IMG/VR virus record: IMGVR_UViG_3300024518_005076
Source: a virus
Taxonomy: Duplodnaviria > Heunggongvirae > Uroviricota > Caudoviricetes
Length of the DNA: 10,236 nucleotides
Direction: 5' to 3' (one strand)
Shown piece after piece: positions 3,629-7,917 of this stretch. The translations under genes and the position numbers were made by a program. Below the pieces are notes generated by a model, which saw only the letters and a program-made list of their open reading frames with translations, was not told where the DNA came from and made no database searches. Position 1 is the first letter of the stretch, and each line of letters begins with the position of its first letter.

Positions 3629-3698
3629 GCCCGCGTAGTGTTAATCAACACGCAAGTCTCTAAAACTTGAAATCTGGGTTAAAGTCCCAGCGCGGGCA
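3629..3698 (+). tRNA. Amber suppressor tRNA, anticodon CUA
   Basis: Acceptor GCCCGCG/CGCGGGC (7/7), T8A9, D stem GTGT/ACAC, anticodon stem CAAGT/ACTTG (5/5) with loop CT-CTA-AA (anticodon 3660-3662), 4-nt variable loop, T stem CTGGG/CCCAG with loop TTAAAGT, discriminator A, CCA not encoded. Confidence 0.88.
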
Positions 3699-3949: not shown

Positions 3950-4028
3950 CACCGGGTACGCCAATCGATCAGAGCGGCTCAGATTAAAATGAGTGGAAAT
4001 GGGGGTTCAAATCCCTCCCCGGTGTCCA
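3950..4028 (+). tRNA. Atypical tRNA-like gene with 8-nt anticodon loop (GATTAAAA); anticodon undetermined (UAA if U33 is kept)
   Basis: Acceptor CACCGGG/CCCGGTG, T73, encoded CCA (4026-4028), T arm GGGGG-TTCAAAT-CCCTC, anticodon stem GCTCA/TGAGT, weak D stem. Confidence 0.75.
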
Positions 4029-4104
4029 GAAGAGGTGGTGTAGCGGAAACACGCCGTCGTGATCGATCAGGGCGGAACCCGAGGTTCAAATCCTCGTCCC
4101 TTCA
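4029..4104 (+). tRNA. Atypical tRNA-like gene with 12-nt palindromic anticodon loop (no assignable anticodon)
   Basis: Acceptor GAAGAGG/TCCCTTC (one A-C mismatch), D stem GTGT/ACAC with GG in the loop, stem CCGTC/GGCGG around GTGATCGATCAG, T arm CGAGG-TTCAAAT-CCTCG. Starts 0 nt after the previous CCA. Confidence 0.75.
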
Positions 4105-4127
4105 TTAGCGCCAGCCTTGGCGCTAAT
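4104..4127 (+). other. Perfect 10-bp hairpin after the tRNA block
   Basis: ATTAGCGCCA-GCCT-TGGCGCTAAT; no U tract, so a processing/stabilising hairpin or operator rather than a classical terminator. Confidence 0.5.
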
Positions 4128-4238
4128 CAGAAACTTTGAGTTTGAGTGCCGTGCTGGTACTCACCCGGCCCTGTCGTGCGGAATCTCGGCCTCATCACCC
4201 GGAATTCCGACGCAGGGCCTTACTTTCAGGAGATAATC

Positions 4239-4409
4239 ATGTCAGGAAAAGAAACAAAGTTCCCGGTTTACTTCGACCCGGAAAGGCGACAGTTGTACTT
4301 CATCGAGTGGGATGAGACCGGAAATAGCGACATTCCCCATCGGATTTACATCCAGACGGAGAGGCCGGTGGTCAGCTCAGCATTGATGCCACCACCGGAC
4401 GAGAAGTAA
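4239..4409 (+). CDS. Small hypothetical protein (56 aa)
   Basis: SD CAGGAG then ATG 4239 (MSGKETKFPVYFDPERRQLYFIEWDE...). The track start at 4146 lies in hairpin sequence and lacks an SD. Confidence 0.65.
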   Translation: MSGKETKFPVYFDPERRQLYFIEWDETGNSDIPHRIYIQTERPVVSSALMPPPDEK

Positions 4410-4491
4410 GATGGTTGCCTCGTTCCTCGTAAGACCGGAGGTGATGTTATCTACGCCGGAAGAATCAAAGAAAAGGGTTGTTGAACCAGAG

Positions 4492-4520
4492 GCCAAGCCT
4501 CATCTGGGGCTTGGTTTTTT
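4492..4520 (+). terminator. Intrinsic terminator
   Basis: GCCAAGCCTC-ATCT-GGGGCTTGGT followed by a T run. Confidence 0.8.
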
Positions 4521-4540: not shown

Positions 4541-4918
4541 ATGACCAGACAGGAAACATTCAACAGAGTGGCGAAACACCTACTCACCCAAGGTAAGAGG
4601 TCCCTTGCCGTGTACCCCGGATCAGAGGATTATGGCCAGAAAGACTGTGCCTACCGAGGAGAGGGCGGTCTTTCGTGTGCTGTGGGATGCCTGATTCCGG
4701 ATGAAAGGTACAGACGGTCATGGGAGGGCCAAGGCGTGGAAAACGAAGATATCAAGGGGCTTTTGTGTGGCGAACTAGGCCACGACCTTAGATTGCTCCA
4801 AGATCTTCAGGGCGTTCACGATGAAACCAATCCGCTTGAGTGGCCGGAACACCTTGAAATAGTTGCGGAAGATAATGATTTAGAGTTCTCTGAAGAACTG
4901 GCTAGACTGCCAGCCTGA
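4541..4918 (+). CDS. Conserved phage hypothetical protein (CxYRG...CAVGCLI family)
   Basis: SD GAGGG then ATG 4541. The pattern 'QETFNRVAKHLLTQG...CAYRGEGGLSCAVGCLIPDERY...LQDLQGVHD...W' is typical of a small phage protein family; 125 aa. Confidence 0.75.
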   Translation: MTRQETFNRVAKHLLTQGKRSLAVYPGSEDYGQKDCAYRGEGGLSCAVGCLIPDERYRRSWEGQGVENEDIKGLLCGELGHDLRLLQDLQGVHDETNPLEWPEHLEIVAEDNDLEFSEELARLPA

Positions 4919-4936
4919 CTGTCCATTACTATCGTA

Positions 4937-5053
4937 TGGCCGGAATGGAGTAAGAGCCATTCAGGGGCCTTCCTAAAGTTGGTTGAACTTGGCACACAAA
5001 CATGTATGATTCAAACAGCTCACAAGAGGGATGGCTCTTACCCATTACGGCTA
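4937..5053 (+). ncRNA. Long rod RNA candidate: 24-bp closing stem, asymmetric bubble, 11-bp apical stem
   Basis: TGGCCG/CGGCTA + AATGG/CCATT + GTAAGAGCCATTC/GGATGGCTCTTAC; bubble 4963-4976 and 5021-5028; AGTTGGTTGAA/TTCAAACAGCT (10 of 11 pairs). The G-U pairs and bulges suggest selection at the RNA level. Confidence 0.55.
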
Positions 5054-5135
5054 CTCATCTCGGGGAGATGAAGCCTGCTCGACAAAGACTGGCGTGCCAA
5101 GCAGTCCAAGTCAGCCCTCGAATTCCCCGGCCCAT

Positions 5136-5176
5136 AAACCCAAGTTCTTCTCTTCGGAGAGGCGCTTGGGTTTTTT
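5136..5176 (+). terminator. Intrinsic terminator with cUUCGg tetraloop
   Basis: AAACCCAAG...TTCTC-TTCG-GAGAG...CTTGGGTTT followed by a T run. Confidence 0.75.
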
Positions 5177-5200
5177 CGTGCGCCAAGATTGGCGCTATCA

Positions 5201-5357
5201 GAACAGGAAGCCCACTTGGAAGTGGGAGCTACGGTCTCCAGATTTGCGACAGGACAAGGGCCATGAATGCTGAACTGCCACACCAAAGGCACATTCAGAC
5301 TACAAGGGTAAACGTCCGAGGCACTCTGGCATGCAGGTTCGAATCCTGCCCTGTTCA
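5201..5357 (+). ncRNA. 157-nt tRNA-like RNA with expanded D and anticodon domains
   Basis: Perfect acceptor GAACAGG (5201-5207)/CCTGTTC (5350-5356) + A, canonical T arm GCAGG-TTCGAAT-CCTGC, CCAGA (5238-5242)/TCTGG (5325-5329) stem enclosing 82 nt, 3-nt linker to the T arm. Confidence 0.7.
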
Positions 5358-5358
5358 A

Positions 5359-5973
5359 TTTAGCCCGATGAGAGGCTTGTAACCGATAGGATGCTTTGAG
5401 TATTCATTGAGCCGAAATGACCTGTGAGTCCGAACAACCGCCTTTGAGTACGGGACCGCAGCAGTTCCAGAATCGATCTGAGATCGAACACGCTGCCTGA
5501 GCATTCAGCCGATCGCTCGAATGATACCGAAAGGAAGCATTTAATCTGGGCGTGTCTAGATCCTTAAGTCGCCAAAGATGGCGAAATGGGACCGCAGAAG
5601 TTCCACAAATCGTCAAGATTGACGAATACTCTGCTTGAGCATTGAGTCGACAGCAGGTCCCCAAGATGGGACAGACCTGGCCGTGCAGGGATGCGAGGTT
5701 TGAGAATCCGCAGGACGCACACGGCGGAGGCATTAAGTTCACTTAATCCGAATGCATACACCACTGCATCACGGACGTGGGTAGGACTCCTTGCGGGGAG
5801 CGGTAGGATACCACGTTAAAAACACGGAGGGTGACTAAGTGATGCCCGGCTCCGCGAGCGGTGGTCAGGTTGCCCATACATTCACCTGTATGGGTTCCTT
5901 GCGCTCAACCACTCTCCCTAAGCGGTAGCTGCTCTGAGTCAGTGTAGTGGACTCTGGGGAGTCCGGATGACAC
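5359..5973 (+). ncRNA. Large ornate structured RNA candidate (~615 nt; GOLLD/ROOL-like in size and context)
   Basis: No credible + strand gene in an otherwise gene-packed genome. Many nested helices (e.g. GCCGTG/CACGGC, ACGTGG/CCACGT, CCCATACA/TGTATGGG, GGACTC/GAGTCC), a predicted pseudoknot and a duplicated module with compensatory changes. Boundaries approximate. Confidence 0.7.
5452..5650 (+). repeat. Two diverged copies of a ~62-nt structured module (5452-5512 and 5588-5650)
   Basis: GGGACC-GCAGC-AGT...TCGATC/GATCGA...AC-GCTGC-CTGAGCATTCAGCCGA versus GGGACC-GCAGA-AGT...TCGTCA/TGACGA...AC-TCTGC-TTGAGCATTGAGTCGA. Confidence 0.8.
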
Positions 5974-6000
5974 AGTTATGAGCCTGGAGAGAGAAATCTG

Positions 6001-6234
6001 ATGACGCAGGACAGTGATCTGACAGGTGACGATCTGCTTGATCGGATAAGAGAATTGGAACTTGAAGGCCCAGGGCAGGGATGGAGGCACCTTCTGTCGG
6101 CCTGTCGTGCGGAAATTGCCCAGCTCAGAGAGGCTCTTGCTGAATCGATCGAGGAATCTGATGCATGGGAGCGCAAAGCCAAGTCCATGGCGACTGAATG
6201 GGAAAACACAGATTTCATGAGGCCAGATCAATAA
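6001..6234 (+). CDS. Hypothetical coiled-coil protein
   Basis: SD GGAGAG upstream; heptad-like 'EIAQLREALAESIEE'. Confidence 0.7.
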   Translation: MTQDSDLTGDDLLDRIRELELEGPGQGWRHLLSACRAEIAQLREALAESIEESDAWERKAKSMATEWENTDFMRPDQ

Positions 6235-6262: not shown

Positions 6263-6607
6263 GTGGCGGACGATTATGGGAGTACGATTAACATGAATGT
6301 ATGGGATGACGCAGATACACAGCTGATGGTTACGGCTGCACACCGGTACTGCCTGCATCGAAAAACCTACATAACCCACGCTGGACATAAATGGCTGGAG
6401 GAGAATCGAGCCAACTTCAATCGGCAGACCATCTTTATGATTGTAAGAGATACGATCCGGGCAATCATGGGTGGGAATGCCGGGTCAGAAACAATCGACG
6501 CTCCAGGCTGGCGGAGACTTGCTCTGCTTCTGTTTTCTGAGATGCGAGAGGACGACCGGGCCAGTATCCGGGAACAGTTTCCTGATTTTGAGGGGATTGC
6601 AGAATGA
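6263..6607 (+). CDS. Conserved phage hypothetical protein (AxRYCLxRxTY motif)
   Basis: SD GAGG, GTG start; 'AAHRYCLHRKTYIT...WL...IVRDT...G...D...W' pattern common in phage proteins. Confidence 0.7.
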   Translation: MADDYGSTINMNVWDDADTQLMVTAAHRYCLHRKTYITHAGHKWLEENRANFNRQTIFMIVRDTIRAIMGGNAGSETIDAPGWRRLALLLFSEMREDDRASIREQFPDFEGIAE

Positions 6608-7107
6608 AAGTGGTCAGTAATCTGTCTGGACTGGAACTTGATACGATTGTTGAGCTGGAAGTCTTCGGAGACGATCTGTCCTGTGCGTTTGACGAGAGAA
6701 GGATTCCTCAGGCTTGCGACCTCTTTGTGCCGAAATACCAGGATGGCCCTCGGAACCTTGTGATCGACGGCACGAGATATCCTCCAGAGGACTGGGTGAG
6801 GCTCTGTGGGGGTCCAGGGTACGATTTCTGGCATTACCGGGAAGGGAAGCCATGGCAGAAGGATCTTGAGGCTGTGATTGAGGCCTACCGTACAGACCCT
6901 CGGGCTTTTCATAGAGACTTGAATTTGTGCTTCCGGCACTTAGTTCCAAATATTCCCAACTTCAGACTCAGCAGGCATACAGATTGTTGGAAAGCGTGCT
7001 GGATATCCGAAAGAGACTCCCCAGACTCTCGGTTCGGGGTAACTCCCGAAGAAGCCATCTGTCGTGCCGCCATAGTAGCCAAAGGGGAAGTATGTACTAC
7101 ACCCTAG
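6604..7107 (+). CDS. Phage ABA sandwich domain-like protein
   Basis: N-terminal 'LSGLELDTIVELEVFG' and C-terminal 'WKACW...GVTPEEAICRAAIVA' fit the phage ABA-sandwich pattern; ends in TAG. Confidence 0.55.
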   Translation: MKVVSNLSGLELDTIVELEVFGDDLSCAFDERRIPQACDLFVPKYQDGPRNLVIDGTRYPPEDWVRLCGGPGYDFWHYREGKPWQKDLEAVIEAYRTDPRAFHRDLNLCFRHLVPNIPNFRLSRHTDCWKACWISERDSPDSRFGVTPEEAICRAAIVAKGEVCTTP

Positions 7108-7319
7108 ATCAGTTCATCGAGCGGCTGGCCTCACTACGCAGTGAAATCGAGGGTGGTGGTGAATCTCCTGTATGTGTTCTGGATACCGACAGGATTGCTG
7201 GCGGATCATGGTATCCTGCCTCGGTCGAAGTCCAGAACGCCGCCCAAGAGACCGCAGATATCTGGGATCTTCCAGTCCATGGAGAGGATGGGGCTGCTCA
7301 GATTATCTCGATCTTCTAG
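7092..7319 (+). CDS. Hypothetical protein (75 aa)
   Basis: SD AAGGGG then ATG 7092 (MYYTLDQFIERLASLRSEIEGGGESPVCV...); ends TAG-AAT-TGA. Confidence 0.65.
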   Translation: MYYTLDQFIERLASLRSEIEGGGESPVCVLDTDRIAGGSWYPASVEVQNAAQETADIWDLPVHGEDGAAQIISIF

Positions 7320-7329
7320 AATTGACTCT

Positions 7330-7917
7330 ATGAGTAAAAGGCATCGCCACAAGAAGCAGAAGCCGAAAAAACCCATCGACTATCTCTCAACACTGGATGA
7401 TCACATCCACATTTGGTGCGATGGAGCGTGCCACCCGAATCCGAACGGGGATGGCGGCTGGGCTTTCTGCTATCAGACTGTCGCCAAAACAGTCAAGTTC
7501 TCGTCCGGAGGCGTCCCGCAGACGACGAACAACAGGATGGAGATCATGGCCATCCTGATGGCTCTTAAGCACTTCACAGAGCCAGCCAGGCTGCTTGTTC
7601 TGAGCGACAGTCGATATGCCGTGAACGGAGCCAGCAGCTGGGCTCGTGCATGGAGCAAGAACGACTGGAGGACTCGTGGGAAAGGAAGGCCGGAAGCCAA
7701 GAACAGGGATCTGTGGGAACAAGTGCTAAAAGCCAAAGATTTTCACATTGATACCAGATTTCAGTGGGTTAAAGGGCATTCTGGCATAGAATTGAACGAG
7801 TTCTGTGACTCTTTGGCTCAAGATGAGAGGGTCGCCCTGTTGCGGGAGCGGTCTAATGAAAAGAGAAGAGAAATCCAGGATGGTCTTTTGTCCTGTGTGG
7901 AAACTAATGAATGCTAA
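7330..7917 (+). CDS. rnhA: Ribonuclease HI
   Basis: Complete RNase HI motif set: WCDGAC, GGW, TTNNRMEI, SDSRY, KNRDLW, WVKGHSG, NEFCDSLA. The start at ATG 7330 is my choice; the track start at 7141 overlaps the upstream gene. Confidence 0.93.
   Translation: MSKRHRHKKQKPKKPIDYLSTLDDHIHIWCDGACHPNPNGDGGWAFCYQTVAKTVKFSSGGVPQTTNNRMEIMAILMALKHFTEPARLLVLSDSRYAVNGASSWARAWSKNDWRTRGKGRPEAKNRDLWEQVLKAKDFHIDTRFQWVKGHSGIELNEFCDSLAQDERVALLRERSNEKRREIQDGLLSCVETNEC

Follow-up and report, generated by a model that had tools for sequence, protein, structure and literature searches.

Does the gene-free DNA behind the tRNA genes of an uncultured marine phage encode a large, intricately folded RNA, or a chain of smaller modules? 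Here, we address this question for positions 5359-5973 of a 10,236-nt stretch of caudoviricete DNA (IMG/VR record IMGVR_UViG_3300024518_005076), which we call the window. Among the gene-free, hairpin-dense stretches of phage tRNA islands, ROOL and GOLLD are the best studied, and a first-pass annotation made from the letters alone had proposed that these 615 nt are an ornate non-coding RNA of the GOLLD or ROOL class, or of a new one, with multibranch nesting, a long-range pairing and a pseudoknot in its 3′ domain. The reading that we favour, at slightly less than an even chance, is that of a modular, hairpin-rich RNA segment of the tRNA island, which would carry a duplicated unit and would not form one large fold. 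A novel RNA element is plausible at this locus, with support from internal evidence only, and would be confined to one phage population. If it is a working RNA, its architecture can be read from the internal duplication, with its kept loops, covarying stems and tRNA-shaped handle, and this would provide concrete sites for mutation.

The first clear signal in the stretch is an internal tandem duplication (units 1 and 2 in Table 1). The local alignment of the two units scored 72, compared with 24.3 ± 4.4 and a maximum of 39 in 300 shuffles. Each unit contains two conserved blocks. Block 1 is matched exactly at two sites, and allowing as many as three mismatches adds no other site in the window (0.04 expected), and block 2 has two matches and none elsewhere in the window (0.01 expected); comparison of the blocks with the other parts of the window yielded only chance 8-mer complementarity. 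Divergence between the units is strongly uneven, with nearly invariant blocks standing beside stems in which 14 positions were changed in matched pairs. Three of six pairs were changed on both sides in the hairpin Pc, whose ensemble probability is 0.53 in unit 1 and 0.93 in unit 2. The enclosing stem Pb, with one pair changed two-sidedly, was recovered by RNAalifold on the two-unit alignment, and three of the five pairs of the hairpin Pa were changed on both sides, one of them through a G-U pairing that forms on the + strand only. In all, the three stems hold seven two-sided compensatory changes in 16 pairs and not a single one-sided break between the two copies. When the units were aligned under guidance of the structure, RNAalifold recovered all three helices at -19.2 kcal/mol, compared with -6.6 ± 2.8 kcal/mol in 500 column shuffles (z -4.5). 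We estimate the chance of such compensations in the absence of selection at roughly 0.002-0.01, which is suggestive, not conclusive. The kept blocks together with the two-sided stem changes suggest that the stems matter as stems and the blocks as sequence-specific contacts.

The second clear signal is the density of local hairpins. We counted 20 hairpin 5-mers (perfect stems with loops of 3-12 nt) compared with 6.2 ± 3.1 in shuffles, and none of 200 shuffles reached this number. Relative to expectations drawn from the coding DNA of the window, maximal stems of at least 5 bp were enriched 2.5-fold (12 vs. 4.8, P = 0.004) and those of at least 6 bp 4.4-fold (6 vs. 1.4), with P about 0.003-0.004 for the two classes. 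Moreover, a family of 6-bp hairpins with the pattern CGYCA-N4-TGRCG has four matches on the + strand, starting at 4109, 5181, 5570 and 5611, all of them inside the RNA island, where 0.21 were expected in the whole 10-kb window and 100 shuffles gave two at most. One copy stands after the tRNA ending at 4104, one ahead of the tRNA-like element at 5201, and two within unit 2. At the copies at 4108 and 5180, the sequence TA(A)TCAGAA(A)C comes next in both cases; these two copies border tRNAs or tRNA-like units and may be sites of processing or protein binding.

We then compared these signals with the fold that the first-pass annotation had described. All the strings that it named were found where it had placed them (Table 1), and the CCCATACA/TGTATGGG hairpin is robust, with an ensemble probability of 0.98, the sole robust one among the named helices. 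The helices of the proposed pseudoknot, GGAGGG/CTCTCC and TGACT/AGTCA, do cross on paper, but both have an ensemble probability of about 0 under an energy model that cannot score pseudoknots and in which real tertiary folds can score poorly. Similarly, the strings of the long-range ATGCTT/AAGCAT helix and of GTGGT/ACCAC are present, but the pairings have ensemble probabilities of 0.12 and about 0, respectively. The long-range nesting and the pseudoknot rest on complementarities of 5-6 nt at chance frequency: complementary 5-mer pairs numbered 181 in the region (180.9 ± 15.6 in dinucleotide-preserving shuffles), 6-mer pairs 37 (45.5 ± 8.4) and 7-mer pairs 7 (11.4). Windows of 150 nt over the region gave z values of -0.2 to -2.4, inside the background of the whole window (-0.53 ± 1.27). 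Neither the ornate nesting nor the pseudoknot goes beyond chance or is supported, and it is a general caution that long-range pairings of 5-6 nt and pseudoknots picked out by eye are expected by chance in 600 nt. We consider it improbable that the stretch is a large globular ornate RNA of a new class, ROOL- or GOLLD-like in its long-range helices and pseudoknots and perhaps self-assembling, for example through CGAUCG, a palindrome within the loop of 12 nt at 5507-5518. The length of 615 nt and the setting in a phage tRNA island do resemble ROOL and GOLLD (PMC5737381; bioRxiv 10.1101/2024.12.08.627333), the ensemble predicts some long-range helices of the 3′ half at p > 0.8, such as 5760-5767/5858-5865, and that half (5655-6010) folds with a z of -1.8; but long-range complementarity does not exceed chance, the long-range helices named earlier are near zero in the ensemble, and the strongest signals are all local hairpins.

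Membership in a known family was assessed by cmscan with all 4227 families of Rfam 15, at gathering scores and, with the cut-off relaxed to E ≤ 10, first on 2.8 kb and then on 831 nt under the laxest filter settings. The stretch matched no family at any of the three stringencies, including GOLLD, ROOL, OLE, raiA, HEARO and introns; the searched region returned two tRNAs, the sub-threshold tRNA at 3950-4025 and noise. The stretch is not a GOLLD or ROOL RNA, and the family assignment offered by the first-pass annotation falls with the covariance models, which found no match at any threshold used. Its broader proposal of a non-coding RNA candidate beside tRNA-like genes is consistent with the data; the stretch is non-coding by codon usage and adjoins such genes. 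An RNA outside the known families is consistent with the lack of coding signal, the hairpin enrichment, the duplicated unit with its compensations and the tRNA-like element on the 5′ side. Identity as a tmRNA, a group I or II intron, an RNase P RNA or a Y RNA was rejected for want of any Rfam signal, and no known riboswitch or leader family matched.

Coding potential was scored with a codon-usage model trained on the 19 genes of the window, by leave-one-out and in bits per codon. The genes themselves reached +0.12 ± 0.09, with 17 of the 19 positive. All open reading frames (ORFs) of at least 40 amino acids in the gap at 4919-6000 were negative (-0.05 to -0.20, and -0.09 to -0.20 for those in the stretch), the whole gap scored lower than 17 of the 19 genes, the scores of all six frames were negative, and in sliding windows over the gap no frame was clearly positive, the best reaching +0.05, under the mean of the genes. 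No Pfam or PHROG match was found for the ORFs of the gap. As far as sequence can tell, the stretch is non-coding. That it encodes a protein after all is scarcely credible, and the candidate would be the longest ORF, one of 112 amino acids on the minus strand (5404-5742). This ORF gave two weak HMMER matches (E 2e-6 and 4e-4) in a search of 1.84 billion proteins; however, the matches are leucine-rich-repeat proteins and scatter over 5-6 short stretches, and their scores are inflated because the DNA duplication yields a repeated peptide that slightly matches every leucine-rich-repeat unit. We treat them as spurious. Pfam detected no leucine-rich repeat in the ORF, its codon score of -0.15 is lower than that of 18 of the 19 genes, and all genes of the window are on the other strand. 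Further, the offset between the two copies is 136 nt for one duplicated block and 138 nt for the other, which precludes a single frame through both.

Directly 5′ of the stretch lies a tRNA-shaped element with a 7-bp acceptor stem (GAACAGG/CCTGTTC), a T arm (GCAGG-TTCGAAT-CCTGC), the discriminator A and approximately 100 nt in place of the anticodon arm; neither ARAGORN nor the Rfam tRNA model calls it. Its last 26 nt (5332-5357), comprising the T arm and the 3′ acceptor strand, recur unchanged in tRNA-like genes on three IMG/VR phage contigs that are unrelated (L063, L064 and L065; Table 1). When positions 5201-5973 were compared by BLAST with 401 sampled genomes from the phylum of a Pirellulales metagenome-assembled genome, only the T arm of the element matched, and it matched T arms of host tRNAs. 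The tRNA-like genes of the three phage contigs start with GAACAG and have Leu-type D arms and inserts of varying length; ARAGORN calls none of the exact-match copies and only a second, 96%-identical copy on L065 (8041-8128), as tRNA-Ala. Three of the sampled genomes met through the T-arm match (L070, L072 and L073) carry tRNA arrays of 6 to 12 genes within 3 kb.

The stretch is the last part of an RNA-rich tRNA island and lies on the same strand as the upstream tRNA units. No terminator was found between 5178 and the ATG at 6001, and the stretch runs into the ribosome-binding site of the next gene. We propose that it would be transcribed on the + strand together with the tRNA-like element and that gene. 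Host tRNA-processing enzymes could cut out the element at 5201-5357, with RNase P acting at its 5′ end and RNase Z, or an enzyme equivalent to it, at its 3′ end, and the excision would leave the downstream RNA with a 5′ terminus at about 5358/5359. In its two copies, the duplicated unit may offer a repeated binding platform, whose partner would be another RNA or a protein of the phage or the host, and the product might act as a stable processed RNA or as a leader of the downstream genes. It is a bolder and distinctly unlikely extension that this would be a new class of large phage RNA, in which a duplicated module of approximately 125 nt is freed by host enzymes from its tRNA-shaped handle and acts in trans during infection. 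Such an RNA could, for example, hold a pair of identical factors from the host or the phage, or self-assemble through the palindromic loop, by analogy with ROOL and GOLLD.

We also searched for relatives of the stretch. No homologue was found in IMG/VR, the JGI metagenomes, the GTDB genomes, the GenBank phages or the 401 sampled genomes, and thus there is no independent covariation among relatives. Blastn of positions 5200-6000 (word 11) returned no match among the GenBank phages. Motif scans of IMG/VR with block 1, alone or with TGAGCAT, of JGI metagenome contigs and IMG/VR with block 2, and of GTDB species genomes with the two-block pattern gave only chance matches in unrelated coding DNA, which have nothing in common with the stretch beyond the motif. 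Across the stretch, the remaining contigs of this phage show 100% identity, and the contig of a protein variant ends at 5053. The strain also occurs in four further seawater runs, with differences at four positions (4846, 4921, 5430 and 5688), each seen in a single contig and at low depth. The neighbouring genes were searched as well. A 125-aa neighbour protein has 295 homologues (best 48% identity), but their phage surroundings are unrelated and gene-dense and lack a comparable gap. No relative of the 77-aa protein was found, making it an orphan, and the searches found no close relative of the RNase H protein and no relative of the 114-aa protein in IMG/VR.

Several of our results weigh against a modular RNA. 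The missing homologues are one. The compensation evidence comes from two paralogous copies and a hand alignment, and on an unguided MAFFT alignment the RNAalifold z is only -1.06. Pb has an ensemble probability of only 0.13-0.19 and Pa of 0.01-0.06. Stability is ordinary, both for the whole region (minimum free energy of -216.5 kcal/mol vs. -204.8 ± 7.7 in shuffles, z -1.52) and for the duplicated units (z +0.3 and -2.0), and folding of the minus strand is comparable (z -2.8). No promoter can be recognised from the terminator ending at 5178 up to the tRNA-like element, and both the ends of the RNA and a partner for it are purely inferred. The lack of homologues, the ordinary folding energies, the long-range complementarity at chance and the loss of consensus-fold significance under unguided alignment would also fit a non-functional spacer, that is, decaying accessory DNA such as dead tRNA genes or a small gene, with a fairly recent tandem duplication and with hairpins that are leftovers or coincidence; neighbours that are orphans or promiscuous accessory genes point the same way. 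However, neutral decay does not give invariant blocks beside matched stem changes, hairpins are 2.5-4.4 times as dense as in coding DNA, and a useless gap of 1.1 kb is unusual among genes that abut or overlap. We regard the spacer as fairly unlikely.

Two further readings assign the stretch a local role. As a cis-acting leader, it would have an expression platform in its 3′ part, with two alternative partners for CTCTCC (5912-5917): pairing to the Shine-Dalgarno GGAGAG would block translation of the 77-aa gene, pairing to GGAGGG (5826-5831) would free it, and the duplicated units would be tandem sensor domains; tandem homologous sensor domains do occur in riboswitches. The absence of a terminator ahead of the ATG at 6001 agrees with this, CTCTCC is the exact complement of the Shine-Dalgarno hexamer at 5986-5991, and a 7-codon frame (5978-6003, ATG at 5978) includes that Shine-Dalgarno and ends in TGATG, its TGA overlapping the ATG of the 77-aa gene. 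But the complement of any given hexamer is expected about once per seven such stretches, neither pairing is favoured in the minimum-free-energy structure or in the ensemble, no known riboswitch or leader family matches, and 640 nt would be exceptionally long, leaving the leader quite unlikely in our judgement. It is very improbable that the element works at the DNA level, as a replication origin, a packaging site or recombination sites, with the blocks as protein-binding sites on dsDNA. In favour of this, the block copies are 136 and 138 bp apart, about 13 helical turns; yet there are only two copies, neither an AT-rich segment nor a GC-skew turn is present, GATC is not enriched (58 observed vs. 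58 expected), and the compensatory stem changes point to a single-stranded fold. Three specific candidates were rejected: a GATC cluster as in origins or pac sites, for the lack of enrichment; attC-like sites, as by eye the units are unlike the sequences ahead of downstream cassette genes; and a CsrA-type decoy, since a by-eye count put GGA at about its chance number.

The phage context of the stretch is as follows. Sequence identical to the window occurs on ENA metagenome contigs of at least 32 kb, the flanking proteins are carried on contigs of up to 99 kb according to the cluster table, and the gene content is that of a phage. All 19 genes lie on the + strand, the recognisable ones are small accessory genes, and outside the gap of approximately 1.1 kb they abut or overlap. 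The coordinates of the features are collected in Table 1.

Table 1. Features of the tRNA island and of the stretch at 5359-5973 (positions in the window unless a contig is named).
Feature	Position	Strand	Details
Suppressor tRNA, anticodon CUA	3629-3698	+	tRNA calls
tRNA-like unit	3950-4025	+	sub-threshold in Rfam; abuts tRNA at 4029-4104
Odd tRNA	4029-4104	+	tRNA calls
Two small genes	4239-4409 and 4541-4918	+	
Strong intrinsic terminator	4490-4520	+	
Sigma-70-like promoter	4983-5010	+	TTGAAC-16-TATGAT
Strong intrinsic terminator	5136-5178	+	17-bp stem, UUCG loop, U6; -24.6 kcal/mol, z -4.1
tRNA-shaped element, 157 nt	5201-5357	+	read from sequence; the stretch begins one base later
Copies of the 26-nt 3′ end of the element (identical; second copy on L065 96% identical)	L063 5645-5670; L064 11763-11788; L065 7772-7797 and 8042-8067		
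Duplication unit 1 (unit approximately 125 nt)	5388-5512	+	local alignment
Duplication unit 2	5532-5650	+	local alignment
Conserved block 1, 18 nt	5452-5469; second copy 5588-5605	+	GGGACCGCAGmAGTTCCA
Conserved block 2, 20 nt	5493-5512; second copy 5631-5650	+	CTGCyTGAGCATTsAGyCGA
Hairpin Pa, unit 1	5404-5420	+	TCATT-7 nt-AATGA
Hairpin Pa, unit 2	5545-5560	+	TCTGG-6 nt-CTAGA
Stem Pb, unit 1	5458-5496	+	GCAGC/GCTGC; encloses Pc
Stem Pb, unit 2	5594-5634	+	GCAGA/TCTGC; encloses Pc
Hairpin Pc, unit 1	5473-5487	+	TCGATC-TGA-GATCGA
Hairpin Pc, unit 2	5610-5625	+	TCGTCA-AGAT-TGACGA
Hairpin of the CGYCA-N4-TGRCG family	5569-5584	+	TCGCCA-AAGA-TGGCGA; ensemble probability 0.95
Further local hairpins	5732-5747 and 5949-5964	+	
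Strongest hairpin of the 3′ part, 8-9 bp	5872-5895	+	loop TTCACC; carries CCCATACA/TGTATGGG
Named pairing ATGCTT/AAGCAT	5391/5535		
Named pairing GGAGGG/CTCTCC	5826-5831/5912-5917		needs one G-U
Named pairing TGACT/AGTCA	5832-5836/5937-5941		
Named pairing GTGGT/ACCAC	5861/5908		ACCAC also at 5760 and 5810
Named pairing CCCATACA/TGTATGGG	5873/5887		
Shine-Dalgarno	5986-5991	+	GGAGAG; ahead of the 77-aa gene
Orphan 77-aa gene	6001-6234	+	codon score +0.18; 3′ of the stretch, no terminator between

Elsewhere in the window, we made several observations that concern the neighbours of the stretch. The sigma-70-like promoter is followed, approximately 130 nt later, by the terminator that precedes the tRNA-shaped element, and the pair could delimit a small RNA of approximately 160 nt without coding signal. 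The most stable local structure of the whole window lies at 4100-4240 on the + strand (-60.8 kcal/mol, z about -5); in this part (4101-4250), a 9-bp hairpin comes directly after the tRNA, and beyond it two long hairpins reach almost to the ribosome-binding site that serves the 56-aa gene at 4239. Further downstream, when TAG is read as sense, the 167-aa ORF at 6604-7107 and the RNase H ORF at 7141-7917 form one 437-aa frame with a single in-frame TAG, with Pfam RNase_H at residues 268-407 of the joined frame. This joined frame may be a second gene under the control of the CUA suppressor tRNA that the phage itself encodes.

Finally, we compared the stretch with known systems. ROOL, with an average of 581 nt, frequently lies close to prophage tRNAs, as GOLLD does (PMC5737381); the two RNAs assemble into closed cages, and one marine GOLLD sits downstream of a tRNA-Met (bioRxiv 10.1101/2024.12.08.627333). 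The stretch resembles ROOL (RF03087) in being phage-encoded and near tRNA genes, and its 615 nt are in keeping with the length of approximately 580 nt; it differs in failing the covariance model even at E ≤ 10 and in that its long-range pairing is at chance, its clear signals being local hairpins and the internal duplication. It shares with GOLLD (RF01998) the phage-borne position in a tRNA island, with units at 3629-3698, 3950-4104 and 5201-5357, and GOLLD itself sometimes has tRNAs inside or adjacent. However, many GOLLD members exceed 800 nt, compared with 615 nt here, the universally conserved 3′ domain of GOLLD is absent, and its model is unmatched; the GOLLD class is further defined by a closed 14-mer RNA cage.

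A tRNA-shaped handle beside a long non-coding stretch also recalls MALAT1/mascRNA (RF01684), a eukaryotic system in which a tRNA-like handle at the 3′ end of a long RNA is cleaved and so defines the end of that RNA. Here, in contrast, the setting is a phage and the handle is at the 5′ end, and the weak RF01684 matches coincide with the genuine tRNAs at 3629 and 4029 and miss the element at 5201-5357. The tRNA cluster of phage T4 encodes small stable RNAs, namely species 1 and 2, RNA C and RNA D, which are structured non-tRNAs of approximately 120-140 nt with defined ends, co-transcribed with the tRNAs and freed by the tRNA-processing machinery. The co-transcription and processing that we propose for the stretch would be the same arrangement, in an RNA that differs in its 615 nt and its duplicated unit and for which no similarity in sequence to the T4 RNAs is expected. 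By this analogy, we infer that the stretch probably works more like the small stable RNAs of the T4 tRNA cluster than like GOLLD or ROOL.

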